From assembly GCA_963801355.1 (NCBI GenBank), contig CAWDEM010000004.1:1472001-1536000 (forward strand): DNA of 64,000 nt, given 5' to 3'. Origin of the DNA: Ignavibacteriota bacterium. GTDB taxonomy: Bacteria; Bacteroidota; Ignavibacteria; UBA10030; UBA6906. The notes under the pieces are model-generated. The model was given only the letters and a program-made list of their open reading frames with translations, was not told the DNA's origin and did no database searches. The position numbers and the translations under genes are program-made. Shown one piece after another: positions 7,632 through 64,000 of this stretch; the first letter of the stretch is position 1; every line of letters begins with the position of its first letter.

Positions 7632-7665
7632 TGCCCCGGTTGTCCGGTGCAAGCGCAGGCATACG

Positions 7666-7710
7666 ATTGCCCATGATCCCCTCGGTACGGATCATGGGCA
7701 ATATTTTTTT
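7666..7710 (+). terminator. Rho-independent terminator
   Basis: 14-bp stem ATTGCCCATGATCC/GGATCATGGGCAAT followed by a T7 tract; lies between convergent genes. Confidence 0.9.
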
Positions 7711-7719
7711 GTGCCCCGA

Positions 7720-12428: not shown

Positions 12429-15400
12429 TCACCAACGCAGCATGTGTACCACCTGAGCCAGAAGCACGAACTCCTGGTCCCCCGAGGATTTGTTGAGCAG
12501 GGTCGTCTGCAGACCTCGTTCGAGGGCCAGCGCTTTCTCCCGGTGTTTGTTGAACACCTCGAGTGACCACCTGGCGATGTCACTCGCGGGCTCTTTTCTT
12601 TTCCACTCTTCAAGCCTTGTCTGTGCCTCCCTCGTCTTCCCGGATGCGCGCAGTGCCAGTGCGCCGGCAAGTTTCGATGCACTTCCCGGCGTGCTTCGAT
12701 TGCGCGTGTACTTGCACACCTTCGAGAGGAGCACGGCAGAACCTTCTTGGTCCCCTTTCTGCTTCAGCAAGAAGGCTTCCAGGTAATCTTCGAGGCGCGT
12801 ATCGACGTCGTACGGCCTGCCCGCCCCGAGCCGCTCCGGCCACAAACGTGCCTGCCGCATCAGCGCGAGCGCTCCCTCGACGTCATTCTGAAGCGATTTC
12901 TGTGCAGCCAGGAGGATGCAGGCCTGGCGGTAAGCATCGTGCCCGTACCGGGCTCCCTCGAAGGGGAGGATTGTCAAGGTATCAAGAATTGCGTGACCGG
13001 CGCCATATTTCTCATTGAAGAGCAGTGTCCGCGCGAGGAGGAATTCCAGCACGTAGGAGTGCGGAAACCGTTCCACGGCGTGCTCGCAGACCCGCAAGGC
13101 TTCCACATACTGCCCCTGGGCGTTCAGGAATGTTGCCAGGGCGTTGTACGTACGCCATTCGCCGGGATCAACCTGCACCGCCTTTCGATAGTCCTGCAAC
13201 GCGCGTTGGGGTGCATCCGCCCAAAAACCTGCACGCGAAAGATAGAAGGGTCCGAAATCCGGCGTGTCTTCGCACGCGGCAAGCAACGTCCCGGCCTCCT
13301 CTTTTCTTCCCAGGCTCCACGCGAGGAGCGCGCGGTAGTACAGAATTTTCCAGTGATGTGCGCGCTGTTCTGCCCAGAGGAGAACCTCCCGGTCCTCCTG
13401 TCTGTGTGGAAAAACGAGTTGAGGGCTCGCAGCGAGCGCGCTGTCCAGCAGCTGTGCGCTCTTCTGGATCCGCCCGCTTCGTGATTCGAGGTAGGCACGC
13501 CAGAGAAGCACCATCGGGTGGTCAGGAGCCAGGGAAAGAATCTCCAGGGCATCCCCTGTCAGACCGAGCCTGGCGAAGTACGTGGCAAGTTCCAGAAAGG
13601 ATTCCTGGGGCAGTTCGTTGCGTATCATCCCGACAAAAGCATCGCGACTCTCCGGGGTCGGCGCCAGTCGGTATGCCACAAAACGCGCACAATGGTTCAA
13701 CGGATCAATGGCCAGAATGTCAGAGATGAATTCGCTCACGGCTGCGGAATCCCGGCGGTGTACGGCAGCAAGAGAACGCAGTTGCAGGGCCGGGATGTTG
13801 TCAGCACCGGCCCGGGAAGCGCGGAGTGCGAACTCCTCCGCATCATCCCATTGACCTTCGATGAATGCCATTTCGGCCAGCTGAAGATATGCGGCGGGAC
13901 GGTAGGCAGCCGAACGCGCGGCAATCCCGAACCCATCGCGGGCGTCGTACGGTTTCCCGAGGCTCCGCTGCGCCAGACCGTACAGGTAATTGCTCTCGGG
14001 ATCATAGGTGTCTACAGTGAGAGATCGCTTTGTGAAGGCCAGTGCCGAATCGTGATCCATCCTGCGAAGGTAAAGCTCGGCGGAACCCGAAAGCGCAGGC
14101 AGGAACTCCGGGTCTTTGTGCAAAGACGCCCGATATGACTCAAGCGCTCCCTTCGGATCGCGTTGGCGAACGCGCTCGCGGGCATCAACAGCCAAACCAT
14201 AAGCCGAATTCCAGTCAAAGGGTGTCTCCTCCTTCACCGGCCTCTCAAGAAGCCGCGCCGTATCGTCGCTGCTGCGGTAGTGAAGAAGGTTTCCGATGTG
14301 AATCTCAACATCGCCATCCGGCCTTCCGGCAACCACCGAATCCTGAACGACCTGTAGTGGCTGGAGCTCCACGGAACGCGAGAAGCATGGTTTGCCTTCG
14401 ATTGTCACCGTAATGACCTGCGTGGACTTTCCGGTAGGACAGAAGCCGAAGTGGAGCACACCGTTTGACGCGCGGACGTGCAGCACGCCGTCCGGCGTTG
14501 CCCGCGTGACGCCGCCGAGGTTTCTGAATGGGAACCATGTTTCATTGAAACGTTCGGAGGTCTGCGGGAGAAACGTCATATGCTTGAAAGGCGTCCTGCT
14601 GCTCTGCATCACCGCCTGATTGAAGTGGAGACCTGATTGGAGCTCGACATACTGGGTATTGCCCAGCGAGGAATCGGTGAGCAAACCCTTCCAGATTTCC
14701 CCTTCCCGTGAAAGTCCCCAGATCCATAGTTTCTTCCCTGGTTTGTCGGTATACCGGGACCAGTGGATGACGCCGAAATCATTCCAGCGTGCACCGAAAT
14801 AGTCGGTGAAGGCGCCCAGGACGTGGTACGATTTGTATGACCCGAACGCGTTGTTTTGATACCAGGAAAGATCCCTTCCCTGAGTGTCGACCGGCCATGG
14901 CGAAACCTCCCCGCCGTGGCTGATGTAGGTATTGCCCGGATAGATCAACTGGAGGGTCGAATCCGCGCCGGCCGCTGCGTTCATCCAATGATAGAGCGAG
15001 GTGCTCACCGCCGTGGGATTGTACCATAATGAACGTGTTTCCACCACGGCCCGGTCGGGCGGAAGCCGGATCTCCACGCGCCACTCCGTGCGCGAAGGAA
15101 GGTCAAGCGCTCCGACGATGCAGCTCACGCTTCCGTCGGCATTTGTGCGCGTGAGATAGTCCACGGGTGTGGCAGTCGCCGGAGTGTGTCCGATATCGCC
15201 GAAATTGAACTCGATCCCGCCGGATGTCCAGGGTCCGCGCATTGCGATTTCGCGGAACTTCATTACGCGGTTGTAATAAATGAACTCCCGTCCGGTGGAT
15301 TTTTCGAAGGCACCGAGAATCTTGCCCCCGATTTCCGGGGCGACAAGCACGCGGATGAACCGGTTCTCCAACGTGACAACCTTCCATGGACGATCCACCG

Positions 15401-15853: not shown

Positions 15854-18463
15854 ATGAATCTTCGTTATCTCCTTGTTGCACTGCTCATCGTCACGCATTC
15901 CGGGGGCATCGCAGAATCACAGATCACGCCTGGAATCCTCCAGCGCTTTCAGACACTTCAACCCGGAGCTGATTTTCTCACGTTCCCCGAGGACCGGGAG
16001 CATCCCATCCGGCTTCGCGACGAGATTCCCGATGCATGGGTGTCGCGGACAGCAGGTGAAATGCGTCGATTTGCCGGATCAACGCGGCCCGGCGAGTACT
16101 TTGTATTCCAGATCGGCGTACTCGCGCACCGGAGAGATCTTGACCGGCTCACCGCGACATGGGTCCCCCTGCGGGGTCCTCAAGTCATTCCAGAATCCGC
16201 CATCACCTGTTTCAATACACAGGGGAGGGACCATCGCGGAAGACTGTTCAGCAAGGTGCTGCGGGTTACGCGTTACCGTATCCAACCGCTCTGGTTCGGT
16301 GTGCAGGTGCCGGCGAATGCACATGGGGTGTACCGGACATCAATTACACTCAGCGCGGCCGGCGTCACATCCCGGGCTGTAGAAGTTGTTCTTCACGTTT
16401 CAGGGGACCCCGTGGTGAACAACGGTTTCGACTCCTCCAGAACGCTTTCGCGTCTGGCATGGCTCAATACCGCCGTCGGAGCGGATGACCGGTGTTCAAA
16501 AGGATACGAGCCGATCCGCCGCGATGCACGTGGGCTCCACATTCAGGGTCGCACAGTCACGCTCGGTCCGGATGGGCTCCCGGCTGCGATCACATCGTTC
16601 TTTGAACCCTCCAATCAGTTCCTCGTCAACAAAGGGACACAATTGCTCCGCGACCGGTTCCGCTTCATCGTTGAGAAGCAAGATGGTTCTTTCATGCGGC
16701 TGGTTCCGGGAGAGCTTCGTTTTCGACAGGAGACCCCTTCTACCGTCGCATGGGAAATCAAGAGCAGCAGTCCCGAATGCGATCTGTTCTGCCATGGTCA
16801 GATGGAATTCGACGGCTTTCTGGACTACGCACTCACCGTGAAGCCCAGAAAGGCCATGGTGGTGCGTGACATCCGGCTCGAAATCCCGATGAACAGGGAA
16901 TGCACCGGCTACATGATGGGCCTGAACCACGAAGGCGGACTCCGTGCCGGCGGGTGGGAATGGCACTGGGACACCACGAAGAATCAGGATATGCTCTGGA
17001 TCGGGGACGTGAACGCCGGATTGCGCATCAAATGGAAAGCCGAGAACTATGTACGGCCACTCATCAATCTCTACTACGGGTGGGGTCCATTGCGTCTCCC
17101 GCCCTCCTGGGACAATGCAGGCAACGGTGGAGTCAGCATCGCCGATTCCGGCACCACGACGTATGTCAGAGCATATTCCGCGCCCCGCAGACTTTCGGCG
17201 GGAGAGGAGCTGCATTTCGACTTCGAACTCCTTGTGACGCCGTTCCGGACGATCGACACGGGAGTGCGCTGGGGCGACCGGTATTTTCACGGAGGCGGCA
17301 CCAATGCATTCCGCAAGATTGCCATGGCCGACAGTGTCGGAGCAAACATCATCAACATCCACCATGCCGAAGATCTCTATCCGTTCATCAATTACCCGTA
17401 TCTCGACGAAAACGTGCCGGCTCTTCGCCTGCTGGCCGACAGTGCCCATCGGGCACACAAACGGTTGAAACTGTACTATACCACGCGTGAACTGACAAAG
17501 AATCTTCCGGAGTTCTGGGCCTTCAACAGTCTCAACGGCGAGATCATCTATCCCGGGCCGGCGAGCGCCTGTACGACTATCATTAATCCGAAAGGACCGG
17601 ATGAGTGGCTGAAGAAGAACCTCAAGGAGAACTACATCCCCGCGTGGCTGAATTGGATCAAGGAGGGGCCTTTCCAGGGTGAACTGGACCTGGCCGTGAT
17701 CACTACTCCCGACGGCAGGTTGAACAATTTCTACATCGGTGGTCTGGACTGGATGCTGGATCACCTCGGCATCGATGGCGTCTATATCGATGATTCCGCA
17801 CTCGACCGCGAGACCGTGCGGCGGGCCCGAAAGCTGATTGACCGGTATCGCCCGGAAGGCCGGATTGACTTCCACAGCTGGAATCATTTCAACGACAAGG
17901 CCGGTTTTACCAATTGCCTGAACCTGTACATGGACCTTCTCCCGTACATCGATCTTGTCTGGATAGGTGAGATGCGGGATTACAATCGGTTGCCGGATCA
18001 CTGGCTGATCGAAGTCTCCGGCATCCCGTTCGGTCTGACCGGGCAAATGCTGAATGGCGGAGGGAATCCCTGGAGGGGAATGGTGTACGGCATAACAAAC
18101 CGGCCGGGATGGGCGGGAGATCCGTCACAGCTCTGGAAATTCTGGGACGCATACGGCATCGCATCAAAAAGCATGGTGGGGTACTGGGACAACGAGAACC
18201 CCGTGAAGACAGGGAATAGTCTCGTCAAGGCCACACTGTACAAGGGAGTCGGACAGTGCATTATTGCTGTCGCGGGGTGGGGGGACCAGGATCTGTCCAG
18301 TGCGCTCACACTTGACTGGAAAACGATCGGCCTTGATCCGGCCAGGTGCACGGTGAGCATTCCTGCCATTCCCGGTTTTCAGGAAGGCCGGCACAATGTG
18401 ACACTCGGAGATCTGACGATACCGGCGGGAAAGGGATATCTGATTGTACTGGAGAAGAATTGA
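15854..18463 (+). CDS. Secreted putative glycoside hydrolase (DUF6067 / GH123-like)
   Basis: Signal peptide; [58 protein letters not shown]. Confidence 0.75.
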
Positions 18464-53143: not shown

Positions 53144-54868
53144 ATGGCGAATTTCTTCCTAGACAATCCTGACATCCTGTTTCATTTCAAGAGATTCAAT
53201 CTTCAGGAGATTGTCTCCGTTGCGGAAGACGGCTTTGCCCAGGCGAAGCACCACAAAGATGCGCCGGTCAATTACGACGATGCCATGGAGAATTACCGCA
53301 AGGTTCTTGAGGTCGTCGGCGACCTGGCGGCGAATCGTATAGCGCCGCGGGCAGCGGATGTGGATCACGAGGGGGCGCAATGGCATGACGGGGAGGTCAC
53401 GTATGCCGCGGGAACGCGAAAGAACCTGGATGAGCTCTCCAAAGCGGACCTGATGGGGATGATTCTCCCGCGCAAATACGGCGGTCTGAATTTCCCGTTC
53501 ACCGTCTACATGATGGCCGTGGAAATCGTCTCGCGCGCGGACGCATCGCTGATGAATATTTTCGGACTTCAGGATATCGGCGATACGATCAGGAAATTCG
53601 GCAACGAGGCGCAACGGGAGGAATTTCTGCCGGGATTCTGCACCGGTGAGTACACGGGTGCGATGGCGCTGACCGAACCTGATGCCGGGTCGGACCTGCA
53701 GGCGGTAAAATTGCAGGCATATCAGAATGAGAAAGGGGAGTGGTTTCTGAAGGGGGTAAAGAGATTCATCACCAACGGGAACGGACAGGTACTGGTGGTG
53801 CTCGCACGCTCGGAGGCCGGGACCAAAGACGGGCGCGGATTGAGCCTCTTCGTGTGTTACGGGAAAGACGGCGTTTTGGTGCGGCGCATCGAGAATAAAC
53901 TCGGTATCCACGGATCACCGACGTGCGAACTGCAATTCAACGATGTTCCTGCACAACTTGTGGGCAGCCGCAAATTCGGTTTGATCAAATATGTCATCGA
54001 TCTGATGTACCGGGCCCGGATGGGTGTGTCCGCACAGGCACTGGGCATCTCGCAGGCGGCCTACGGGGAAGCCCTGGCGTATGCGAAGGATCGCGTCCAG
54101 TTCAACAAGCCCATCTACTCTTTCCCGGCGGTCTCCAACATCCTGATCGACATGCGTGTCACGCTCGAGATGAACCGGTCGCTGTTTTACTGCGCCGCCC
54201 AGTCCGTCGACCGCAAAGAGAAACTGGAAGAGCAGATTGAGAAACGGAAAGAAGAAGGACAATCGATCACCGACCTGGTGGCGGAACTCCGGCAGGCCAC
54301 CGCACTTGCGGGTCTGCTCACGCCGCTGACGAAGCTGATGCTGACAGAGTCGGCGAACAAGATCACCTACGATGCACTCCAGATTCACGGCGGCACGGGG
54401 TACATGAAGGAGTTCAGAGTCGAACGCCTGGCGCGGGACGCACGCATCACCAATATCTATGAAGGTACTTCGCAGCTGCAGGTTGTTGCCGCCATCGGTT
54501 CGGTCATCAACGACATCATGCGCCCCCATTTTGAACAGAAAGAAGCTCAGGAGTACCCGGGCAGGCTATCGCCGCTGGCGACATCGCTGAAAGAGATCCG
54601 GCAATTGTACAACGACAGCCTCCGCCTGGTGGTGGACCGGAAAGACCCCAGTTTTCAGGATGTCGCTGCAAAGGATCTGGTCGAACTGTACGGATATCTC
54701 GTGGTCGGCTATCTTCTTCTGGATGAGGCGGAGACCGATGCACGGAAAGTATTCATCGCAAACCGCTACATTCTGGGGGCACTTGCGCAGGCCAGACGCA
54801 ACGCCGAGTGCATCAAGAACGGAATGTTCGCCGATCTTCTGCACGCGGAGACGATTCTAAACGTCTAG
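53144..54868 (+). CDS. Acyl-CoA dehydrogenase
   Basis: ALTEPDAGSD, GVKRFITNG, KLGIHGSPT, QIHGGTGY, RDARITNIYEGTSQLQ. Confidence 0.95.
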   Translation: MANFFLDNPDILFHFKRFNLQEIVSVAEDGFAQAKHHKDAPVNYDDAMENYRKVLEVVGDLAANRIAPRAADVDHEGAQWHDGEVTYAAGTRKNLDELSKADLMGMILPRKYGGLNFPFTVYMMAVEIVSRADASLMNIFGLQDIGDTIRKFGNEAQREEFLPGFCTGEYTGAMALTEPDAGSDLQAVKLQAYQNEKGEWFLKGVKRFITNGNGQVLVVLARSEAGTKDGRGLSLFVCYGKDGVLVRRIENKLGIHGSPTCELQFNDVPAQLVGSRKFGLIKYVIDLMYRARMGVSAQALGISQAAYGEALAYAKDRVQFNKPIYSFPAVSNILIDMRVTLEMNRSLFYCAAQSVDRKEKLEEQIEKRKEEGQSITDLVAELRQATALAGLLTPLTKLMLTESANKITYDALQIHGGTGYMKEFRVERLARDARITNIYEGTSQLQVVAAIGSVINDIMRPHFEQKEAQEYPGRLSPLATSLKEIRQLYNDSLRLVVDRKDPSFQDVAAKDLVELYGYLVVGYLLLDEAETDARKVFIANRYILGALAQARRNAECIKNGMFADLLHAETILNV

Positions 54869-54889
54869 AAAGAGGCGGGCTCAGCCCGG

Positions 54890-55744
54890 TCACTGCATCT
54901 CCGCCTCCATCGTTTTCAGAAACGCGATTCCGTTCCGCACGAATACCCGTCCGTCCGGACAGAGATTGTGGAACATCCCCCTCTGGTAGGCAAAATCATC
55001 CAATCCTGAGTTGTACCCCTCCAGGCCGATATAGCCGTCGAAGCCGATCTCACGAAGCGTGCTGAATACTTCCGTCCAGGGAACGATTCCTCCTCCAGGG
55101 ACACCGCGGTCGTTCTCACAAGCGTGAAGACCGAACAGACGTTTTCCGCAGGTCCTGAGTGCGTTGGCGTAACTCCGGATTTCAGTGACGCTATGGTAGG
55201 TGTCGAAAAGGATGCGGAGACCGGGATGATCTGCGAGATCGATCAATCGGACAAGCTGCTCCGGAGTATTGACAAGGTGCGTCCGAAAGTGGCTCATTGG
55301 TTCAAGGGCAATGATAACATTGCGGCTCGCGGCGTATTCCGCGAGTGCATGGAGCCCTTCTGCCGTCCAGCCAAACTCACCGGAGGGAGGTCGGCGGCGC
55401 TTCACGACTCCCGGGTGTCCGTACATGGCGCCGGCATAGGCGACAGCACCCAATTCCGCTGCTGTGTCGACCTGGCGGCGATGCCATGAAAGCCCCTTCG
55501 CGCGATCCGCCGGATCGTCGGCGGACAGGTCGCATTCCAGGGGCCATGCACCGCCGGGGCCGATGATGAGCTCTATTCCCAGAGATGACGCATGCCGGCC
55601 GGTGCGGCGGGCATCAAAGGGAACATCGTCACCCACAGAGAGCTCGAATATGCTCAAATCGAGTTCTTTCGCCAGATCAAGCAGGTGAAGGTCGCTGTCA
55701 GACCAGCGCATCGTGAAGAGATAGCAGTGGGCACCGTATTTCAC
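54890..55744 (-). CDS. Sugar phosphate isomerase/epimerase (ketose 3-epimerase-like, TIM barrel)
   Basis: LEPMSHFRTHLVNT, FDTYH, HACENDRGVPGGG, GFDGYIGLE; GTG start inferred. Confidence 0.88.
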   Translation of the reverse strand: MKYGAHCYLFTMRWSDSDLHLLDLAKELDLSIFELSVGDDVPFDARRTGRHASSLGIELIIGPGGAWPLECDLSADDPADRAKGLSWHRRQVDTAAELGAVAYAGAMYGHPGVVKRRRPPSGEFGWTAEGLHALAEYAASRNVIIALEPMSHFRTHLVNTPEQLVRLIDLADHPGLRILFDTYHSVTEIRSYANALRTCGKRLFGLHACENDRGVPGGGIVPWTEVFSTLREIGFDGYIGLEGYNSGLDDFAYQRGMFHNLCPDGRVFVRNGIAFLKTMEAEMQ

Positions 55745-55899
55745 AATTCTTCCGTTGCAGCCGTGATACATTGGTAGAGGATCTGCAAAAAGGTAATGCC
55801 AGGACAGCCCAGATGCAAGGAAAGGCCATATCTTTGGCTATATTGGGAAGATCCATGAAGGATTTCCGGCAAATCAACGGTATCTCCGAAGGAGGAGCC

Positions 55900-57045
55900 A
55901 TGATGCGCGTTCTACTCCTGGCCGTGGGGATCATTACGGGAATTACCCTTTGCATCCCGCAAGATACCCGCGGTGTCCCGGTTGGCGAAGGCACGCTCGA
56001 ACGATGGCTCGAGGGCCAATCACCGCGGGAGATCGGAAAACGTGTGGCCCGGCGTTTCGTCGAAACCCCGCTTGCTTTCTCAGGCCGCACCGAGCCCGCA
56101 AACCATATTACATATCCTGAGGTGTGCACGTGGTACGGTGCTTTGCAGTTCGCCCGGCTCACCGGCGATACGGCCCTGCAGGGCGCGCTAATCCGTCGAT
56201 TCGAGCCGCTCTCCGGCGAACTCAAAGATCTGGTCCCGCTCCCCGACCATGTTGACATGACGGTGTTTGCCGCCGTCCCGCTCGAACTGTTCATGCAGAC
56301 CAACGATGAGCGTTATCTCGATACGGGGAAGCGGATGGCTGACAGGCAGTGGGGAGCGCCGTTTGGCCCGAGGGCGAACGAAGAATCGTGGGAATACTAC
56401 CGCAAGGGCCTCACATGGCAGACCCGCATGTGGATCGACGACATGTTCATGATCACTGCTGCCCAGGCGCAGGCATATCGTGCAACTGGTGATCGCCGCT
56501 ACATCGACCGGGCCGCCCAGGAAATGGTCGTGTATCTGGATTCACTGCAGAAGCCCAATGGCCTTTTCTATCATGCCCCCGATGTGCCATTCTTCTGGGG
56601 GCGGGGTAACGGCTGGATGGCAGCAGGGATGAGCGAGCTTCTCCGCTCTCTCCCCCCGGACAACCCCCATCGCCCTCGCATCATGGAAGGGTACCGGACC
56701 ATGATGGCATCCCTGTTGACATTTCAGGATGCGGAGGGCATGTGGCGTCAATTGATAGACAAGCCGGAAAGCTGGCCGGAGACATCCTGTTCAGCAATGT
56801 TCACGTTCGCGCTCATTACCGGCGTGAGGAATGGCTGGCTGGACAGCGAGACGTACGGCCCGGCCGCCCGAAAAGGGTGGCTCGCAGTCATTCTCTATCT
56901 GAACGACGATGCAGCCGTCAGGGAAGTGTGCGAAGGAACCGGCAAGAAGAACGATCTGCAGTACTACCTGGATCGCAAGAGGAATGTGGGAGATCTCCAC
57001 GGGCAGGCGCCGATACTCTGGTGTGCATCGGCATTGCTGAGGTAA
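55900..57045 (+). CDS. Unsaturated glycuronyl hydrolase (GH105/GH88)
   Basis: Signal peptide; WIDDMFM, GLFYH, WGRGNGW, ETSCSAMF, GDLHGQAP. Confidence 0.92.
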   Translation: MMRVLLLAVGIITGITLCIPQDTRGVPVGEGTLERWLEGQSPREIGKRVARRFVETPLAFSGRTEPANHITYPEVCTWYGALQFARLTGDTALQGALIRRFEPLSGELKDLVPLPDHVDMTVFAAVPLELFMQTNDERYLDTGKRMADRQWGAPFGPRANEESWEYYRKGLTWQTRMWIDDMFMITAAQAQAYRATGDRRYIDRAAQEMVVYLDSLQKPNGLFYHAPDVPFFWGRGNGWMAAGMSELLRSLPPDNPHRPRIMEGYRTMMASLLTFQDAEGMWRQLIDKPESWPETSCSAMFTFALITGVRNGWLDSETYGPAARKGWLAVILYLNDDAAVREVCEGTGKKNDLQYYLDRKRNVGDLHGQAPILWCASALLR

Positions 57046-57078: not shown

Positions 57079-58092
57079 CTACTCATGCTGCAGCAACTGG
57101 AGTTGCCACTGATCTGTGCTCCTGGTGTTCAGGAATGGTCTCAACGCAAGAAGTCCGGTCTGACCGATGCTCCTGCGCAAGTAGTGGAGTTCTTTCAGCT
57201 GGCTTGCAGCTTCGGGATCCCGTGGAACGTCGAACCCCGCCTCCTTCATGAGGAGCATTCCTTTGGCTTTGATTGCCAGTTCGCTCTGGACACGCAACAG
57301 GCAGAGCATGTCGGCCACCGTCTCCGACGGAAAGCGATCCTTCAAAGAATGCAGGTACTGGCCGATAGGATTGTCCGCAAGCACTCCCGATGAAATCATT
57401 TCCAGGACTTCGCGGTCGGTATCGAAGCCCGTTCCCAGCCACTCGCGGGTGGTACTTTCGCTTTGCCGGAACACGATGCTCACGATAGCGGGGAACAGGA
57501 TGAGGATAAGGAGTGTGGAAACGAGCGGTGTCACGAAAAAGTGATTGAACAGGGCGTGGAGGAATATCGCGAGGAGAAGCCCCGGAGCAGCAATCATCAC
57601 CCGCCACCGGCCGGACTTGTCCAGCAGCGCCTTCGTGATTATGCCGACTATCGCTGTGGCTCCGCCGTGCATTAACGCCGTGCCGAACCCGCGGATGACC
57701 CAGACAAGCAGGTGCGCGTCGGGTCGCATCTGTATGTAATGCAGGTTTTCGAGGATGGCAAACCCCGTGCCGAGCGCAAATCCCCGAATGGCCGCATCCA
57801 CCATGAAGCCCACTCTGTCGGTGCGAATCAGGTAGAGCAGGAACAACGCCTTGGCCGTCTCCTCGATCACCGGTGCTACATAGCGTGTCAATGCTGCGGT
57901 GTGCATTCCTGTCAATCTCAAGAGCAGAACGTTGATGCCATAACACACAGCAGCGACGGCACAGCCGGCAGCGATTGTCCAGACGACCGTTTGCGAACGT
58001 ACCAGCTTGAAGCTGTCAAGGAGGATCAGACTGACGAGGAAGAAAAGGACCGGCAGAAGTGCGACCGCCGGCGGGATGAGCAGATTGATCAT
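57079..58092 (-). CDS. PrsW-family glutamic intramembrane protease with C-terminal soluble extension
   Basis: APVIEETAK (EE motif), GFAILEN, ALMHGG, LHALFN; start overlaps the upstream stop (TGATG). Confidence 0.88.
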   Translation of the reverse strand: MINLLIPPAVALLPVLFFLVSLILLDSFKLVRSQTVVWTIAAGCAVAAVCYGINVLLLRLTGMHTAALTRYVAPVIEETAKALFLLYLIRTDRVGFMVDAAIRGFALGTGFAILENLHYIQMRPDAHLLVWVIRGFGTALMHGGATAIVGIITKALLDKSGRWRVMIAAPGLLLAIFLHALFNHFFVTPLVSTLLILILFPAIVSIVFRQSESTTREWLGTGFDTDREVLEMISSGVLADNPIGQYLHSLKDRFPSETVADMLCLLRVQSELAIKAKGMLLMKEAGFDVPRDPEAASQLKELHYLRRSIGQTGLLALRPFLNTRSTDQWQLQLLQHE

Positions 58093-61052
58093 CAGAGAAT
58101 CTTGAGCGATATCATGAATTCCCTGGTGGTCCGCTGTTCCTTTTCGAAGGCAAGAGCGTACCCCAGGGAGATCGTGGACGAAAGGTTCGAAAAGATGACC
58201 AGCTTGAAGTCGAGCTGGGCGCCGGCATTCGCGACAGTGCGCTGCGATAAGGAAAGCTGAGGGTTGGCAACAATCGTGCCCGTGAAGAGCGCAAGCCGCG
58301 CCCAGGTACAGTACAGGCCGGAGACCCCCAGACGCCTGAATCGCAGCGGCGGGAGCGTCCACTCCAGCATCCCCTTCATGAATGTCGTGCCTCCGATCTC
58401 ATTGAGAGGGGTGCCGGGGAAGCTCTCGACGTCGCGGTAGCGTCGCGCCTCGCGGAAGTCCACCCAGTTGTTCCCGAATCCACCGAAATAGAAATTGGCG
58501 AAGGGCTCCGCTTCATCCTTGGGGCAAAAGCCCGCGGCGGTGCGCAGCCAGACGGACGCGTGATCCCAGGGGAGGGCGAATCCCATATCCGCTGTCGCGT
58601 AGAATTGCGGAAACCAGACAGACCTGACGACGTACGTGTAGTTGTTCAGGGATAGCTGGAGCCCTTTTTCGGCGTCCACGGCGCCAAGAGAACGCATTGT
58701 GCGTGTGTACTTCAACTGTCCGCTGAGAGTAAAAAAGCGGTCGTACGTCACTGCGATGTCCTGAGCATACGGTAGCCGTTCCAATCCCCAATACGCTCCC
58801 ACCCCGAGCGTGTAGTCCATCGTGGTCGGTCGGTCGTCGAGCAGTAGGTCGCCGTAGTTCACCGTCAGCGCATTCCCTTTCCGGCTCCGTTTCGTGGGTC
58901 CGAACAGATCGTAGAAATCCGCGGCATTGTAACTGGCCCGGACCTTCCATTGCCAGTACTGATAGTTGAATGTGGCATGCAGCCGTTCGCTGCCGGCCAG
59001 ACTCCGCTGCGGCGAGTATGACACGCTCAGATCGGCATTGTGCAGCAGCAGCGGGTCAAAAATGCTCGCGCGCACACCCCATGCCACTGTACTCTTGTAT
59101 CCATGAACGATTGGAACGAGTGAGCCCAGAGTCAGGTGTGCCAGTCCGCTGTACTCGCCCGAGGAGACCTCCAGGGAATCGATGTTGATGTTCACAGGCG
59201 AAGGAGGAGGGAGTTTCCAGGTTGTGACTTCAGGATGGGTCTCGACCACCGACTGTCCGAGATACGCAATTAAGCTGAGGTCTTCACGCGGCTGGACGGC
59301 GATCATCACTGGTTGAAACCCGCGCGTTGAAAACCGGAATGCGGCAAAGGAATCAGGAGAGACGGGCACCGGCCGGAACAACCCTGTCTCGGCATTGGTC
59401 AGCCACTCCATCTGTCTACGCTCACGATCATAGCGCACGATATTGCTGACACCCGTCTGGAACGTGGAGCCATACAGATAGCGGCCATCCCCGGAAAAGA
59501 CAAAATTGAGAGGAGCGGTGTTTGTGAATTCATACAATACGTCGTAGTTGATCCGCATGGTCAGCAGACTGTCGATGGGAAGCGCGATCAGCTGGTGACG
59601 CCCGCTGATTTCGGTCATCGATGCGGCGAAGATTTGCCCGTCGGGGGAAATGTCGGGATCATAGAGGTCGATACCATACTTCAGGGGAAGTATCTCCTGC
59701 CAGGAATCGTACGGTGGTGGGATCCTGACGAGCCGCGATATCCCATCGTGGTGCTGGATTCCCCAGAGAGAACTGTCGCTCCGGCTGAACGCGAGATCGC
59801 CGATGCGTGCGTTGCGCAAAAGTGTCCGGTCTGAACCGCTCCGCACATCGAGAACTCTCAGGTCCCTCCACCCCCGGGAATTCTTGGTGGTGTAGAACAG
59901 GGCGTGGCGCGATTCGTCATACGCGGTTGAGGTGACGTTGTAGAGGGAGGGGGTAGGAAGATCAACGAGTCGCCGCTCCTCCCCTGTGTCGAGGTTAAGC
60001 GCGATGAAGTGCGCGGTTTCACCCGGGTAGTTGACTGCAAGTACCAGCGTCCGGTCGGCGGAATCCAGATGCGCCCTGGATACCGCCCCAAGCGGCGAAG
60101 CGCAGATCGCGCGTTCCTCCGTGGGAGGATAGCGCCTGAGGGAATCAAGGTTGGTTTCTTGCCAGTCATGCTCAAACCGGATCCAGTTCGACCACTCATC
60201 ATCCAAGTCCCGCCCGAACACCCGTTCGAACTGGGAGGCAAAATAGGCATTGCTGGTGTCAGACCGTGCAAACCAGTCGATCACCTTCTGTGGCCCGTAT
60301 TGCCTGCCGAGGTACGAAACGAAGCGTGTTCCGTAGAGATACGAGTTCGCACCAATCTGAAAATCGATGGTGGTGCCTTCGGACTCCAGTCCGACGAAGT
60401 CGTAGAAGTAACCGCTGTCGCGCACCATCGTCCGGAACACCATTTCGTCGTAGCCGTTGATTGTTCTTCCTATTCCGCCGGACATCCAGGTTTCCATGAA
60501 AACCGCTATGCCCTCGTGGTACCACCGGGGGGAATACTTCCGCGGGGTAGTCAAATAACTGTACACCATGGAGAGGGGTTCCTCTGCTACGGGGAGGACT
60601 TTTCCCATAAAGAGCCCCCGGAAAAAGCGATCCGATGGTGCGGCCTTATCTGTGGCAACGATGTGCGTGAGTTCATGGTTGGTAACCCAATTGAACCGCT
60701 CATTGGTGGGGGACGTCTCGTACGTGTACTCATAGGGTTCGATGCCCAGAATCATGTAGTTCCGGGGGAGGCTGGTTGCTCCGGCATACCCATAATCGTC
60801 GTAGTCCTGCAGAAAGATCAAAACATCTTCGGAAGGCGTGTAGTCGAACAGCCGCCGGTGGAAGGCAATCGAATTCTCAAAGCTCCGCGCAAGGTGGGGA
60901 ACGATGAATGAGTGCTGCCGCGCATAGTACACGAGCCGCATGTTTCTGGTCTGCAATGTATAGAAATCGGCGGCCGGCGCAAGCGATGTGCCTGCAAGAA
61001 AGAGGACCAGTACGGCCAGAGCTGGTGTGCGGAAGAATCGAAGTTGGGGCAT
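58092..61052 (-). CDS. Outer membrane protein: HEXXH metallopeptidase-like domain + TolB-like beta-propeller + C-terminal beta-barrel (Omp85/BamA-like)
   Basis: Signal peptide; NHELTH and PRWYHEGIA; PDISPDG / FSGDGRYLY propeller blades; amphipathic strands ending FMISLKIL. Confidence 0.75.
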   Translation of the reverse strand: MPQLRFFRTPALAVLVLFLAGTSLAPAADFYTLQTRNMRLVYYARQHSFIVPHLARSFENSIAFHRRLFDYTPSEDVLIFLQDYDDYGYAGATSLPRNYMILGIEPYEYTYETSPTNERFNWVTNHELTHIVATDKAAPSDRFFRGLFMGKVLPVAEEPLSMVYSYLTTPRKYSPRWYHEGIAVFMETWMSGGIGRTINGYDEMVFRTMVRDSGYFYDFVGLESEGTTIDFQIGANSYLYGTRFVSYLGRQYGPQKVIDWFARSDTSNAYFASQFERVFGRDLDDEWSNWIRFEHDWQETNLDSLRRYPPTEERAICASPLGAVSRAHLDSADRTLVLAVNYPGETAHFIALNLDTGEERRLVDLPTPSLYNVTSTAYDESRHALFYTTKNSRGWRDLRVLDVRSGSDRTLLRNARIGDLAFSRSDSSLWGIQHHDGISRLVRIPPPYDSWQEILPLKYGIDLYDPDISPDGQIFAASMTEISGRHQLIALPIDSLLTMRINYDVLYEFTNTAPLNFVFSGDGRYLYGSTFQTGVSNIVRYDRERRQMEWLTNAETGLFRPVPVSPDSFAAFRFSTRGFQPVMIAVQPREDLSLIAYLGQSVVETHPEVTTWKLPPPSPVNINIDSLEVSSGEYSGLAHLTLGSLVPIVHGYKSTVAWGVRASIFDPLLLHNADLSVSYSPQRSLAGSERLHATFNYQYWQWKVRASYNAADFYDLFGPTKRSRKGNALTVNYGDLLLDDRPTTMDYTLGVGAYWGLERLPYAQDIAVTYDRFFTLSGQLKYTRTMRSLGAVDAEKGLQLSLNNYTYVVRSVWFPQFYATADMGFALPWDHASVWLRTAAGFCPKDEAEPFANFYFGGFGNNWVDFREARRYRDVESFPGTPLNEIGGTTFMKGMLEWTLPPLRFRRLGVSGLYCTWARLALFTGTIVANPQLSLSQRTVANAGAQLDFKLVIFSNLSSTISLGYALAFEKEQRTTREFMISLKIL

Positions 61053-61071
61053 CGTGCTTCCACATGGAGAA

Positions 61072-61105
61072 GCACGGAGGAGAGGATGAGATCTCTCCTC
61101 CGTGC
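61072..61105. terminator. 13-bp intergenic hairpin (partial terminator or mRNA stabiliser)
   Basis: GCACGGAGGAGAG-N8-CTCTCCTCCGTGC. Confidence 0.65.
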
Positions 61106-61142
61106 CCGACCCGGTGAGTACGCTGTGGGCTATCAGTGATTG

Positions 61143-62108
61143 TCAGTTCTGCGCGGGAGCCGACTTGTCCTCCATTGCCGTCTTTTCCATCGCCGACCTT
61201 AGCTCCAAGGGGAGCGTGCGGTAGAGAGCTTGCTTCGATTCGACGGGAAGTCGATCATATGCCGCTTTCTGTTGATCGACAGGGAGTCTGGCGAAGGCGA
61301 GTGTCTTCGCATCAATCGGCAGTGCGGCGTAGATGATCATTCGCTCATCGATCGGTGCTTTGCCCAGCATCTGGCGCTGCTCTGCCGGCGGCGTTTTGAG
61401 GAATGGCTTCATGAATGCCTCGGGTGCCACTCTTTCGGCGAGGGCGGTGGCAGCCTCCACCGGCATGGTTTTCAAGACTGCGTACCGTTCCGCCGGTGCC
61501 ATCGCCTCGAAGGTTTTGAGGCGTTCGGGAACGGCTTGCTTCTCGAACTGGGCTGATGAGAACCTTGCTGCCAGACTGGCCTTTGCTGAAGCATCCAGTG
61601 CGGCATACGCAGCGTTCAGTTCAGCTGCGTCGGTCCGGAGGGCGAGTGCCGTCCGGTCAAGTGCACTCATGTTCGAGAAGAAGGAGTTGCGCTCGGCAGG
61701 GCTCATACGCTCCAACGCTGCTTTCAGTGCCTCGGGAGCAGTGCGGTCAAGTATTGCGGATGCATGTTCCTGCGCAAAACGAGCAAAGATTGCCGCCCGG
61801 GCTTCCATCGCCTGCTTGCCCACCAGTTCTGTCTTTTTCTCCACCGCCATGCGATCGAATGCCTCCACGGTCGCAGCCACCGAACTTCCTCCACCGGCTG
61901 CTTCCTGTCCGGCTAGCTGGACGTCAGCTTCTTTGATCTGCTCTGATCGGTACTTTGCGGCCGCCCCAATCGTTCCCGTGGCTTCATCGCTCGTAGTGGG
62001 CGGGTAGAAGAACGAAAAGTAGACGACAGCAAGAATGGCAAGCAAGGCACCACCAATCAGCCAAGGTGTCTTCTTGCTCTTCGACGCTTTGTTCTCTTGA
62101 CTCTCCAT
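61143..62108 (-). CDS. Membrane-anchored alpha-helical protein with about 19 12-aa repeats
   Basis: GGAGG SD; basic N-terminus + TM; repeats such as ALERMSPAERNS, AFARLPVDQQKA, AYDRLPVESKQA. Confidence 0.8.
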   Translation of the reverse strand: MESQENKASKSKKTPWLIGGALLAILAVVYFSFFYPPTTSDEATGTIGAAAKYRSEQIKEADVQLAGQEAAGGGSSVAATVEAFDRMAVEKKTELVGKQAMEARAAIFARFAQEHASAILDRTAPEALKAALERMSPAERNSFFSNMSALDRTALALRTDAAELNAAYAALDASAKASLAARFSSAQFEKQAVPERLKTFEAMAPAERYAVLKTMPVEAATALAERVAPEAFMKPFLKTPPAEQRQMLGKAPIDERMIIYAALPIDAKTLAFARLPVDQQKAAYDRLPVESKQALYRTLPLELRSAMEKTAMEDKSAPAQN

Positions 62109-62170
62109 TGTAGCCTCCTGTAATGTATGGTAATAACGCCCTGTGTTATCTGCGGTAGCTCTATCCGAAT

Positions 62171-62196
62171 TACGTCCGGGCTACCTGCGAGTTCAA
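62171..62196 (-). promoter_or_regulatory. Putative ECF sigma promoter
   Basis: Minus strand TTGAAC-N16-CGTA; compare B. subtilis sigmaW TGAAAC-N16-CGTA. Confidence 0.65.
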
Positions 62197-62203
62197 ATAT
62201 GTT

Positions 62204-63001
62204 TCACTGTTTCGGTTTGGTGGCCGCTCCGCCTCCGTCAAAAAGATCATGCTCGTACACAGATACGCCGTTTTCGAAGAATGTGAGGCGGACAGGTTCC
62301 GTATTCGAAGCCGGACGGCTGAAAACAAGGCGTAAATCCTTGACCTGATTCCCCCGGACGATGACTTTCCCGGGGAGGAGTTCCAGCGTGGTTTGTGCGT
62401 ATCCCGGCCGGCTCATGAAACGGACGGTTCTAGACCCGATATCGATCTGGAGGCGGGCCTCCAGCGGGGTGGAGCAGTCGAGCTGGACAGTCATTGCGTC
62501 CAGAGTTCCCTCGCTGAGCGTCTCAATGCTTCCCTTTGCGGCAGAGGTGAGGATGGCATGAGTTTTCCAGAGATTCTGGTCGGCGTGCCGCGCGATCATG
62601 GAACCCGCCACGTCCTGCTCGCTAATGGTGCTCCGCTGGACTGCGCTGAGTACCAGGGCAAGAGAGACTCCTCCCAGGGCGATCCCTCCCACGAAAGCAT
62701 ATACCAACCGCAGGTCCCGCAGAGGAAAAACCACCCGGGCCAGGGTCTCCTGGATCCTGCGTGGCTGCCGTTGAATGGTTTGTTGTGCCTCGATCGCACG
62801 CCGGACTGCAGGCCTAAGGCCTGGAGGCGGCTCAGCCGGACGGCTCTCCGAGTAGAGACGCAAGAGACCGTGCAGGTCCTCGCGGAGGGCCCTCGCATCA
62901 TCGTCCTTCGCGAGGAGCGTATCGAGTGTGCGTCGTTCCCTTTCGGTCAAGACGCCGTCAATTTCCCTGTTCAGGAGTTCTGTGGTTTTACTAGTGCTCA
63001 T
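62204..63001 (-). CDS. Transmembrane anti-sigma factor
   Basis: Overlaps the ECF gene; N-terminal ELLNREIDGVLT..L.LL anti-sigma pattern, one TM, periplasmic domain. Confidence 0.8.
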   Translation of the reverse strand: MSTSKTTELLNREIDGVLTERERRTLDTLLAKDDDARALREDLHGLLRLYSESRPAEPPPGLRPAVRRAIEAQQTIQRQPRRIQETLARVVFPLRDLRLVYAFVGGIALGGVSLALVLSAVQRSTISEQDVAGSMIARHADQNLWKTHAILTSAAKGSIETLSEGTLDAMTVQLDCSTPLEARLQIDIGSRTVRFMSRPGYAQTTLELLPGKVIVRGNQVKDLRLVFSRPASNTEPVRLTFFENGVSVYEHDLFDGGGAATKPKQ

Positions 63002-63548
63002 GGAATCGCAGCCCCTTTTTCACCAGCACTGTCCGCAGTTGCACCCGCGCGGAGAACAGCCTTGACTTCACCTTCTTCTCTGATATCTCCAGAATTGCGC
63101 CGATTTCTTCGTATGTCAATTCCTCAAAATGCCTCAGAACCAAAACCGCGCGCTGTTGTACGTTCAGCTCCAGAAGCCCGCTTCTGAGAATCTCCTCAGT
63201 GTCTTCCCGTTCTTCAGTTTCTTCCGGACCCGGTTCACCGGAAGCCATTTGATCGCTCAGCGGAGCGTGTTTCCTGTCGTGTTCCAGATGATCCAGCGCC
63301 CCGTTGACCAGAATCCGATAGAGCCAGCTGAAAAACCTGTATTTGGGATTAAATGTCCACAAACGCTCATAAGCCTTTACGAATGCCTCCTGGGTGATTT
63401 CTTCAGCTGCATCGTAATCCCCGGTCATGCGGAGCGCCACGTTGAACATCGTCTTTTGGTACTTGCCGACAAGTTCGTCAAACGCTTTTGCGTCACTGCT
63501 CACGCACTGTCTGACGAGTTCTCTGTCGTGGCTGTCTGCATCTTTCAT
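62991..63548 (-). CDS. ECF RNA polymerase sigma factor
   Basis: AFDELVGKY, AEEITQEAF, FFSWLYRI, LTYEEIGAILEIS..VKSRLFSAR. Confidence 0.95.
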   Translation of the reverse strand: MKDADSHDRELVRQCVSSDAKAFDELVGKYQKTMFNVALRMTGDYDAAEEITQEAFVKAYERLWTFNPKYRFFSWLYRILVNGALDHLEHDRKHAPLSDQMASGEPGPEETEEREDTEEILRSGLLELNVQQRAVLVLRHFEELTYEEIGAILEISEKKVKSRLFSARVQLRTVLVKKGLRFHEH

Positions 63549-63578
63549 AAATACCCGGCAGGGGGCAAAAAGTTGGTC

Positions 63579-63872
63579 CTATTCACTGTCGTCGATCGGG
63601 AAGACCAGGTCAAACCGGGCGATCATGAATACATCCCGAACGAATTTGGTCAATTTGACCAGAATGAGCGTCTGGCCGGAGTCGCTCAGTCGCTTTTGTG
63701 CCTTCAGGAGCACACCCAGGCCCGCGCTCGAGATGTACTCCAGATTCTGGAAATTGACACGGCTGGTTGTTACCACCCGGTCGAACACAGCACTGGCGAC
63801 CTCGACTTGTGAAGCGTCGAATCTGCCCGCGAGCAGTATTTCGCCGTCGTCCTGCACAGTAACCGTAAGCAT
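63579..63872 (-). CDS. STAS domain anti-anti-sigma factor (RsbV/SpoIIAA-like)
   Basis: GRFDA; LEYISSAGLGVLL with the phosphorylatable Ser. Confidence 0.93.
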   Translation of the reverse strand: MLTVTVQDDGEILLAGRFDASQVEVASAVFDRVVTTSRVNFQNLEYISSAGLGVLLKAQKRLSDSGQTLILVKLTKFVRDVFMIARFDLVFPIDDSE

Positions 63873-63873
63873 G

Positions 63874-64000
63874 CTAGGTCTCCAGTGTTTTGCTGAATGA
63901 GATTGTGCTCCGCCCGTTGGAGTACGAGTAGGTGAGGTTCTCCACCAGCTGCTTTACGAGGTGAATGCCTAGCCCGCCAATTCTGCGGCGCTCCAGGGGG
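63874..64000 (-). CDS. RsbW/SpoIIAB-type anti-sigma serine kinase, 3' end only
   Basis: Not in the ORF track; manual translation PLERRRIGGLGIHLVKQLVENLTYSYSNGRSTISFSKTLET*. Confidence 0.85.
   Translation of the reverse strand, partial: PLERRRIGGLGIHLVKQLVENLTYSYSNGRSTISFSKTLET

Follow-up and report, generated by a model that had tools for sequence, protein, structure and literature searches.

A set of co-oriented genes on the minus strand of the window, a 64,000-nucleotide stretch of DNA from an Ignavibacteriota bacterium (contig CAWDEM010000004.1, positions 1,472,001 to 1,536,000; G000:C4:1472001-1536000), encodes a putative regulatory and envelope system that recurs in many bacterial lineages. 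From position 64000 down to 57079 (all coordinates are window positions unless a contig number such as C4 or a locus is given), analysis of open reading frames and profiles finds genes for an RsbW-type kinase, a STAS-domain protein, an extracytoplasmic function (ECF) sigma factor, a single-pass anti-sigma factor, an anchored repeat protein (Rep), an outer-membrane protein (OMP) and a PrsW-family intramembrane protease. The seven co-oriented and mostly abutting genes that had been claimed for this region were confirmed on the minus strand, gene by gene. In the reading that we favour, and to which we give about an even chance of being correct, they belong to a module of regulated proteolysis in diderm bacteria, self-contained and self-activating, which is related to the sigmaW/RsiW/PrsW system of Bacillus and whose output is its own envelope machinery.

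In the resting state, the ECF sigma factor would be held at the inner membrane by the RsiW-like single-pass anti-sigma factor. PrsW from the same operon would cut the anti-sigma factor near a conserved G-T-[IM] motif, 9-20 residues outside the membrane helix, and a site-2 protease with its gene at another place in the genome would complete the cleavage and set the sigma factor free. The free sigma factor would then fire a single promoter located directly before its own start codon, so that sigma factor, anti-sigma factor, Rep, OMP and PrsW are all raised. Rep is probably the main product, with a second promoter of its own in most lineages and a hairpin that separates it from the OMP gene. Since the same juxtamembrane motif is present in Rep in a more complete form, Rep is proposed as a second PrsW substrate, and its cleavage would release the repeat domain into the periplasm. 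OMP, which combines a BamA-type barrel with a periplasmic zinc-peptidase-like domain and a TolB-like propeller, would degrade or translocate the released Rep. A switch composed of a GAF-PP2C phosphatase, RsbW and STAS would provide a second input from the cytoplasm, in the simplest case through RsbW as a further, soluble anti-sigma factor. Every cleavage event in this scheme, the target of RsbW, the direction in which Rep is handled by OMP and the inducing signal are points that we infer.

The original prediction for this DNA described one co-conserved system across both membranes, for which no characterised counterpart was known, and offered two models, a sigmaW-like cascade with positive feedback and a dedicated export pathway for Rep. 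The system does recur across more than ten labelled phyla, with the SpoIIE phosphatase present, and full-text literature searches yielded no paper that describes the composite. Of the two models, the sigmaW-like cascade gains most. It is strengthened by the RsiW-like anti-sigma factor, the invariant PrsW residues, the conserved autoregulatory promoter, the presence of a site-2 protease and the gene fusions described below; the promoter, however, is not where it had been claimed. The model of Rep export fits the uncleavable-looking signal anchor and the conserved motif of Rep, and an operon that is apparently built to over-express this protein.

Conservation of the gene set

Among 7999 scored candidates of a 90%-clustered collection, 5697 relatives of OMP were found at E <= 0.001. 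Each of the best 120 has an identity of 53% or more and is unnamed or annotated as 'hypothetical', and nearly all of them are full-length. When clustered at 50% identity, the relatives from a filter-free search fall into 2404 clusters, and down to 28% identity the full-length architecture is retained. By a scan of one genome per species 692 stretches were confirmed, from which 70 distinct loci were kept and examined, all of them derived from metagenome-assembled or single-amplified genomes, with no cultivable carrier identified among them. These 70 loci span more than ten labelled phyla. Their labels are bins of Bacteroidota/Ignavibacteria/Chlorobi type, Latescibacterota, Eisenbacteria, Krumholzibacteriia, Gemmatimonadota, KSB1, Calditrichota, Zixibacteria, Neomarinimicrobiota, Cloacimonadota, Acidobacteriota and Armatimonadota.

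Gene content of the loci was scored by tblastn with the window proteins. PrsW lies 3' of OMP on the same strand in 59 of the 60 loci that have at least 1.1 kb of downstream sequence, the exception being L062. Upstream of OMP, the 45 loci with at least 4.5 kb contain the sigma factor gene in 36 cases, STAS in 36 and RsbW in 35, and all three occur together in 33. In L013 the RsbW/STAS/ECF trio is placed further upstream. Its apparent absence from L020 is a scaffold-gap artefact, as SpoIIE, RsbW, STAS, ECF and anti-sigma genes and the 5' end of Rep are found in the same genome beside 100 N. Such 100-N scaffold gaps split the operon at L084 (10215-10314) and at L020 (near 4015-4275) in a record labelled as a complete Gemmatimonadota chromosome; the Rep 5' end is present at both gaps, which probably indicates an assembly break inside the repeats.

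Because it recurs across phyla, the gene arrangement is far beyond chance. Co-conservation across taxa was one of the points on which the original prediction had staked itself, and the genes are indeed kept together over this entire range of labelled phyla. Within the phylum of the window itself the distribution is patchy, with OMP in 9 of 101 sampled genomes. The system is single-copy in its own genome, and the STAS query likewise yields one copy only.

The ECF sigma factor and its anti-sigma factor

The sigma factor (62991-63548, 185 amino acids) is RpoE/AlgU/SigW-like and consists of the domains Sigma70_r2 and r4_2; it scores 114.4 bits with TIGR02937 (cut-off 42.9). Its best solved relatives are 6in7_B (E 1.4e-24), 8z6g_B (about 1.5e-24), SigW (5wuq_A, 4.2e-19) and RpoE (1or7_A, 1.3e-18). 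With an overlap of 11 nucleotides its gene is followed by that of the single-pass anti-sigma factor (62204-63001, 265 amino acids), in which an RsiW-like cytoplasmic domain, one membrane helix, a G-[TS]-[IM] motif (here AGSMI) and a beta-rich periplasmic domain of about 120 amino acids follow one another.

The separate anti-sigma factors of the loci, each of about 260 amino acids, constitute one family. A profile of 31 of them was compared with solved structures and matched RsiW from B. subtilis best (5wuq_C, E 1.6e-11, positions 4-77), while the second match, RskA, reached only 0.025. The anti-sigma domain of RsiW carries a zinc-binding H-x3-C-x2-C motif. Residues 1-90 of the anti-sigma factor from the window contain neither Cys nor His, so this motif is missing; zf-HC2 was matched in one of the 31 family members, at 0.046. 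Gly133, the glycine of the juxtamembrane motif, is conserved in 28 of the 31. An ECF sigma factor with an adjacent RsiW-homologous single-pass anti-sigma factor, the arrangement by which a sigmaW/RsiW-type system is recognised, is present. The genome also encodes M50 site-2 proteases, with three reading frames that together give four PF02163 matches above the cut-off (best 215.2 bits, C4:213216-214466).

A predicted autoregulatory promoter

A dyad search of the gaps between the STAS and sigma factor genes found CAAC-N-GTA in 39 of 39 regions, compared with a maximum of 9 in shuffled sequences. The aligned family promoter reads ACCAACTTTT-N13-TGTAnTT, with a spacing of 17 between CAAC and GTA in 37 of 41 loci. 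It is located immediately 5' of the sigma start codon in 41 of the 42 sigma-bearing loci; the 42nd, L028, is cut by a contig end. In the window, this promoter (63549-63577, minus strand, ACCAACTTTT-N13-GGTATTT) fills the gap between STAS and sigma factor genes and scores 26.9-30.4 bits in three scans. In two weight-matrix scans of the whole 4.8-Mb genome, each run with a cut-off near 18 bits, where the weakest training sites score 17.9 and 19.0, it is the sole site that reaches this value.

The -10-like GTA lies 3 nucleotides before the ATG in the window and in most loci, and 8-10 nucleotides from the start codon in the rest. Because the ATG follows after only three bases in most loci, the sigma factor transcript would be leaderless or near-leaderless in several phyla. 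Judged by the promoter scan, the only target of the sigma factor appears to be its own operon, and with a single hit in the genome the physiological output must then be Rep, OMP and PrsW themselves.

A second strong copy of the promoter is found just 5' of Rep in 25 of the 41 loci with a separate Rep gene. It is also present where the sigma factor gene is not adjacent (L020, L031, L034, L035 and L062). Behind Rep, the intergenic region to OMP contains a stem-loop with a 15-bp stem (61070-61107, minus strand; -38.1 kcal/mol, z -4.37), whose stability is reached by none of 200 shuffles. With z < -2 against mononucleotide shuffles as the criterion, 38 of 45 loci have a comparable hairpin, and in all 45 the stem reaches at least 8 bp. 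The second promoter before Rep and the hairpin behind it together suggest that Rep is made in excess over OMP and PrsW.

The internal ECF-type promoter that had originally been proposed at 62168-62196 (TTGAAC-N17-GTAATT) is suitably placed and spaced, yet the family matrix gives it -6.4 bits, within the null range of 130-nucleotide stretches (median -8.8 and 90th percentile -2.2 bits). The assignment is not supported in the window, where its loose pattern is also no more frequent than chance predicts; in 25 of 41 other loci, it is the strong second copy that stands at this place. In the same gap between anti-sigma factor and Rep genes (62130-62200, minus strand), a nested inverted repeat, GGTAGC...GCTACC around CCGGA...TTCGG, overlaps the candidate. 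Two further candidates were rejected. GAAC-N15-18-CGT as the family promoter occurs in 1 of 46 loci and 42 times in the window, where 39.4 occurrences are expected, the actual consensus being CAAC-N17-GTA; and a promoter-like site at C8:189571, considered as a further target, lies inside a reading frame of 747 amino acids. Upstream of RsbW and of OMP the dyad search found nothing that exceeds shuffled sequences.

The partner switch

The STAS-domain anti-sigma-factor antagonist (63579-63872, 97 amino acids) scores 39.5 bits with STAS_2 (cut-off 29.2) and matches TIGR00377 with E 5.2e-13. It is preceded by the RsbW-type serine kinase/anti-sigma factor (63874-64296, 140 amino acids), of which the last 42 codons (63874-64000) lie in the window. 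This assignment is based on Pfam HATPase_c_2 (66.4 bits, cut-off 27.4); the protein stays below the NCBIfam equivalog cut-offs for RsbW (28.9 versus 145) and SpoIIAB (18.7 versus 135). A SpoIIE phosphatase had been suspected beyond position 64000. Directly there, a gene for a 434-amino-acid GAF-SpoIIE PP2C phosphatase is located (window-equivalent 64293-65597, minus strand; SpoIIE 172.8 bits, plus GAF), and its 3' end overlaps the RsbW start by 4 nucleotides. The partner-switch set of PP2C phosphatase, HATPase_c_2 kinase and STAS protein is complete and encoded together by abutting or overlapping genes.

A sigma factor under partner-switch control is typically of the sigmaB/sigmaF (group 3) type. 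The sigma factor next to this switch is of the ECF type (group 4), not of the sigmaB/sigmaF type. The text and the available part of the supplement of the ECF reclassification (PMC7826278) name no group with PrsW, STAS or RsbW in such a context.

The PrsW-family protease

The stop codon of OMP and the ATG of PrsW (57079-58092, minus strand, 337 amino acids) overlap and share one base (TGATG). The protein matches Pfam PF13367 with 76.7 bits (cut-off 23.5) over profile positions 5-194 of 196. The catalytic motifs of the PrsW family, located in membrane helices, are E-E-x-x-K/R, H and H-x-x-x-N/D. Correspondingly, Glu77, Glu78, Lys81, His142, His179 and Asn183 are invariant in 53 sequences and form E-E-x-x-K, H and H-x-x-x-N. 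NCBIfam classes PrsW as a glutamic-type intramembrane protease, and the available part of PMC3482391 mentions four conserved motifs for the family.

The model of PrsW (pLDDT 88.4) comprises seven membrane helices and a conserved helical C-terminal domain of about 115 amino acids (223-336). The best structural match of the helices is APH-1 (8oqz_C; Z 14.3, root-mean-square deviation (rmsd) 4.0, 192 aligned residues), and SpdC is matched with Z 8.1; Foldseek with the PrsW model gave no match at E <= 0.001. Because of the seven helices and the basic residues in alternate loops, the C-terminal domain should be cytoplasmic according to the model. A fold comparison of this domain matched nothing informative, and the scores of an Atlas search, at most 0.81, are below lead level. 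Among longer forms of PrsW, one protein has 698 amino acids, with an extension that contains no Pfam domain. A second, more canonical prsW gene (C4:1174282-1175253, 323 amino acids, PF13367 132.6 bits) is present in the genome with no sigma or anti-sigma factor gene adjoining it.

The repeat protein and the shared juxtamembrane motif

Rep (61143-62108, minus strand, 321 amino acids) starts with a short basic tail and a membrane helix, followed by a conserved juxtamembrane module and then by helical repeats rich in Ala, Glu and Leu. Across the loci, the helix ends with [FY]-P-P, and about eight mostly acidic residues lead to G-[TA]-I-G-x3-K-[YH]-R-x2-Q-[IM]-x3-D-V. In the window the N-terminal module (residues 16-65, 61914-62063) contains Y-P-P, the acidic linker, G45-T-I-G48 and K-Y-R-x-x-Q57-I-x-x-x-D62-V. 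In an alignment of 54 sequences Gly45 is found in all, and Ile47, Gly48, Gln57 and Asp62 are at least 90% conserved. A strict pattern detects the module beside OMP in 49 of the 55 loci with at least 1.5 kb upstream; of the six others, four are degenerate as judged by eye, one is masked and one (L057) is without any module. In the genome as a whole the strict motif has a single occurrence, and a word-index search with Rep residues 10-75 gave 5 close relatives only. On inspection of its sequence, Rep has no A-x-A site, and prolines follow its hydrophobic helix.

Beyond the module, the Rep proteins are unrelated in sequence and consist of lineage-specific short repeats, with total lengths from 194 to 1135 residues. 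Consequently, a match of Rep to MgtE_N (36.6 bits) is probably a likeness of helical repeats.

The core of the module recurs in the anti-sigma factors. In Rep the Gly is present in 54 of 54 sequences, followed by Thr or Ala in 53 and then Ile in 51, and is located at a median of 10 residues after the helix (range 9-14). The anti-sigma factors have the Gly in 28 of 31 sequences, then Thr, Ser or Ala in 31 and Met, Ile or Leu in 29, with the Gly at a median of 15 residues after the helix (range 9-20). Both motifs often show an acidic residue at -3 and an aliphatic one at -2. Furthermore, in 6-7 of 42 loci (L026, L044, L047, L066, L067, L071 and probably L024) a single protein between sigma factor gene and OMP joins the anti-sigma domain to the Rep helix, motif and repeats and replaces the separate anti-sigma factor and Rep.

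In one further genome, RsbW, STAS, Rep, OMP and PrsW are kept at L031, and a separate mini-module is found at L083 (G102:C9:19000-37000, positions 7563-10945). It consists of STAS, an ECF-type promoter, an ECF sigma factor, an anti-sigma factor with T-A-T-I-G-G after the helix and a short PrsW paralog, with neither OMP nor Rep. This PrsW has 241 amino acids and is without the C-terminal domain; a gene resembling Ser/Thr kinases follows it. Since the motif is common to Rep and anti-sigma factor, persists in the fusions and occurs in the OMP-less L083 locus, it is presumably tied to PrsW rather than to OMP.

The outer-membrane protein

The AlphaFold2 (AF2) model of OMP (58092-61052, minus strand, 986 amino acids including a signal peptide) has a pLDDT of 91.7 and a pTM of 0.90. 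In this model, a helical domain with the HEXXH motif is followed by a TolB-like propeller of six blades and a barrel of 16 strands. The outer-membrane barrel carrying an HEXXH domain, as proposed in the original prediction, is thus seen in the model, with HELTH present and the barrel aligning with BamA.

The helical, Peptidase_MA-like domain comprises residues 29-306 (60135-60968), with HELTH at 60663-60677. His126, Glu127 and His130 of this motif do not vary among 20 sequences and show at least 90% conservation among 55; Glu180 and Glu187 are also at least 90% conserved. With Peptidase_MA_2 the protein reaches 13.5 bits (cut-off 32.4), and weak matches were obtained for 7 of 20 homologs (best 1.7e-4). 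A language-model (Atlas) search with this domain gave 0.95 to Peptidase_MA-like clusters, and 19 of 30 matches are in Peptidase_MA_2 clusters.

The propeller (residues 307-590, 59283-60134) is related to TolB by sequence as well as by fold (2w8b_B, E 5.9e-9; 1c5k_A, Z 22.5, rmsd 2.8, 241 aligned residues; profile E 2.9e-6). The Omp85/BamA-type barrel (residues 630-986, 58095-59165) has 16 strands between residues 641 and 985, as assigned by DSSP on the AF2 model, and superimposes on BamA from D. radiodurans (8xnb_B) with Z 19.4 and rmsd 4.2 for 288 aligned residues. Pfam Omp85_2 scores 16.1 bits (cut-off 23.1), with weak matches in 8 of 20 homologs. No POTRA family was found in OMP up to E 5, and in the model the helical domain and the propeller occupy that space. 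Neither a TPS domain nor POTRA, the criteria for two-partner secretion, was found in Rep or OMP, which makes membership in this group less likely but does not bear on an analogous mechanism. Fold searches with the whole OMP model returned mostly propellers.

Elsewhere in the genome, a protein of 727 amino acids (C8:976065-978248, minus strand) is 21% identical to OMP residues 26-580 (E 2e-12) and appears to be a paralog that combines peptidase and propeller but has no barrel.

Weighing of the alternatives

Several points weigh against the proteolytic cascade. To our knowledge, RsbW-type kinases act on group-3 sigma factors and not on ECF sigma factors, and one ECF sigma factor with two anti-sigma factors would be unusual. 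PrsW from the window scores 23.3 bits with the NCBIfam PrsW equivalog NF033739 (cut-off 225); by its sequence it is a family member and not an equivalog of PrsW from B. subtilis. What the anti-sigma factor has in common with Rep is limited to the short G-T-[IM] core and does not include K-Y-R..Q..D-V, and it is for this reason that we infer, rather than observe, the equivalence of the two motifs. The second promoter before Rep is missing in the window and in its closest relatives, L003 and L006. A core of Rep, OMP and PrsW without an adjacent sigma factor gene is found in L057, L059, L062, L063 and L072. Since no relative of the ECF sigma factor was found at E <= 1e-20 in the L063 genome, whose completeness is unknown, this core may work without this sigma factor. 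Finally, the promoter matrix was built from autoregulatory sites and could miss diverged targets, and a cascade with itself as the only detectable target needs an effector role for Rep and OMP.

One alternative, which we consider unlikely, is a dedicated export or sorting pathway. Rep would be the cargo, and its signal anchor with the Y-P-P/G-T-I-G module an N-terminal sorting signal that PrsW cuts in a sortase-like manner. The new N-terminus (K-Y-R..Q..D-V) would be recognised by the propeller or the peptidase domain of OMP, and the repeat domain would reach the surface by way of the Omp85-type barrel, similar to two-partner or type Vd secretion; the anti-sigma factor would bear the same signal, so that transcription would track the activity of the pathway. 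This agrees with the missing A-x-A site and the prolines after the hydrophobic helix of Rep, and with its hypervariable length (194-1135 amino acids) and repeat unit, which are typical of surface or cargo proteins and not of regulators. The extra promoter before Rep and the hairpin after it match the operon design of a major subunit and its usher, and in some lineages the core has no adjacent sigma factor gene. As far as the available parts of the sources go, the Omp85 relatives FhaC and PlpD translocate proteins (PMC4104836), and the btr system of Bordetella couples an ECF sigma factor, a secreted anti-sigma factor and a partner switch to secretion (PMC7498569). Passage through the barrel is, however, difficult to reconcile with the lack of a POTRA or TPS domain and with the BamA- and TamA-type barrels being closed to the outside (PMC4104836, available part). 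The built-in HEXXH domain with its gating propeller looks more like a degrading enzyme than a translocon, and Rep outside the cell is a postulate of this model. Taken as one joint claim, which we likewise regard as doubtful, the locus would be a new protein-sorting route of diderms: an N-terminal signal (signal-anchor helix, Y-P-P, G-T-I-G, K-Y-R..Q..D-V) would be cut by a dedicated PrsW, and an abundant, fast-evolving repeat protein would be handed to a POTRA-less peptidase/propeller Omp85 barrel and reach the cell surface or outer envelope as a stress-induced protective layer, with the anti-sigma factor as a sentinel substrate that reports the flux and the GAF-PP2C/RsbW/STAS switch gating the process from the cytoplasm.

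Another possibility is an envelope-damage sensor of the sigmaE/RseA/RseB type, which seems rather improbable to us. Here the protease-propeller of OMP would sense trouble in the outer membrane or periplasm and trim the distal repeats, either those of Rep or those of the fused anti-sigma factor. Rep would normally shield the anti-sigma factor or compete for PrsW as an abundant decoy; its loss would license PrsW to cut the anti-sigma factor, and newly made Rep would reset the system by negative feedback. Peptidase and propeller together have the layout of a gated oligopeptidase, with a weak match of the whole OMP to tricorn (1k32_A, E 1.9e-8, TM-scores 0.17/0.16). The juxtamembrane motif common to Rep and anti-sigma factor, the over-expression of Rep by design (promoter and hairpin) and the repeats carried directly by the anti-sigma factor in the fused forms also speak for a sensor. 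On the other hand, a six-fold variation in Rep length is ill-suited to fixed shielding or measuring, the promoter scan shows no stress regulon beyond the operon itself, and the motif at the inner membrane would be distant from a protease tethered to the outer membrane. A further proposal concerns the partner switch and can be combined with the other readings, although we give it only a slim chance. RsbW or unphosphorylated STAS would bind the cytoplasmic C-terminal domain of PrsW and gate proteolysis, instead of acting on the sigma factor. This domain (223-336) is conserved throughout the 53 aligned sequences, and the core contains no other sizeable cytoplasmic domain; in L050 RsbW and STAS adjoin Rep, OMP and PrsW without a sigma factor gene, and in L059 STAS and RsbW are downstream of PrsW. 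Partner switches with outputs other than sigma factors are described, in the available parts of the sources, for BtrUWV of Bordetella (PMC7498569) and for a STAS/glycosyltransferase module of Anabaena (PMC13555669), and Zhang et al. 2012 (PMC3482391, available part) noted PrsW proteins of the signalling type that carry cytoplasmic sensor domains in fusion. Yet RsbW and STAS are fixed to the sigma factor promoter and gene in 33 of 45 loci, and a promoter that travels together with STAS accounts for the L031 case. The search for longer forms of PrsW, weak evidence in itself, revealed none fused to STAS or RsbW, and the C-terminal domain matched no informative fold.

Neighbouring genes

The neighbours of the system in the window (53144-57045) are unrelated to it. 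They comprise a reading frame that resembles an acyl-CoA dehydrogenase as read by eye, a gene for a xylose-isomerase-like TIM barrel (126.6 bits) and one for a GH88 glycoside hydrolase (198.1 bits). The last is located downstream of PrsW on the opposite strand and is convergent with it. Beyond the window, L002 encodes two secreted proteins (13284-14558 and 16092-17984), one of which was read by eye as an aminopeptidase. The C-terminal segments of both are presumably like those that the type IX secretion system uses.

Significance

The system has considerable reach, since the OMP family comprises 5697 relatives or 2404 clusters from many little-studied phyla, and its proteins are unnamed or 'hypothetical'. 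If the proposed cascade is correct, it shows the use of a PrsW-type protease by diderms, where PrsW has so far been studied almost only in Firmicutes. It would also provide a first functional context for the propeller-bearing Omp85 proteins that were catalogued in 2014. Furthermore, the locus is a compact test case for the wiring of a partner switch to an ECF sigma factor or to a membrane protease, and the shared juxtamembrane motif of Rep and anti-sigma factor points to specific residues for testing.

Comparison with known systems

The proposed cascade shares with the sigmaW/RsiW/PrsW/RasP system of B. subtilis, as described in the available part of PMC10202637, an ECF sigma factor, the AAC-N17-GTA promoter spacing and autoregulation. 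A single-pass anti-sigma factor that matches RsiW, a PrsW-family protease with its catalytic motifs and a site-2 protease in the genome are further common features. In contrast to the Bacillus system, the host is a diderm, prsW lies inside the operon of the sigma factor, PrsW has an extra cytoplasmic domain and falls short of the PrsW equivalog, and the anti-sigma factor is without zinc ligands. Rep, OMP and the partner switch are added, and according to the promoter scan the regulon is the operon only.

Compared with sigmaE/RseA/RseB/DegS/RseP of E. coli (listed in Table 1 of PMC10202637, available part), an RpoE-like sigma factor, a membrane anti-sigma factor and an extra periplasmic partner are found in both. 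Proteolytic activation linked to the state of the outer membrane, as in E. coli, would be a further parallel. A PrsW-type site-1 enzyme takes the place of the serine protease DegS, OMP is encoded in the operon, and Rep is anchored, repetitive and unrelated to RseB.

Omp85-type barrels with an N-terminal propeller that is most like TolB, and not with POTRA, were catalogued as the 'WD40-Omp85' subfamily without functional study by Heinz and Lithgow 2014 (PMC4104836), who suggested an assembly role like that of BamA-BamB. The available part of that paper mentions no peptidase domain, PrsW, sigma factor or gene context. Thus, the novelty that had been claimed holds for the composite system, whereas the propeller-Omp85 architecture alone was already known.

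For an ECF sigma factor with a removable anti-sigma factor and a partner switch in one locus, the nearest analogy is the btr locus of Bordetella (BtrS, BtrA, BtrU/BtrW/BtrV; PMC7498569, available part). There, too, an anti-sigma factor is removed by an envelope machine, PP2C phosphatase, kinase and STAS protein are encoded in the same locus, and a positive feedback exists between machine and transcription, as is proposed for the system from the window. The machine in Bordetella is, however, a type III injectosome, and the proteins are not orthologous. With regard to the protease, the available part of Zhang et al. 2012 (PMC3482391) distinguishes PrsW proteins that export toxins from those with a signalling role, which are joined to cytoplasmic sensor domains.

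Exosortase/PEP-CTERM, rhombosortase/GlyGly-CTERM and the CPBP-type glutamic intramembrane proteases likewise combine a short motif beside a membrane helix with a dedicated polytopic protease encoded next to its substrate. In the system from the window the signal would be N-terminal and not C-terminal, and a single substrate per genome would be cleaved by PrsW.

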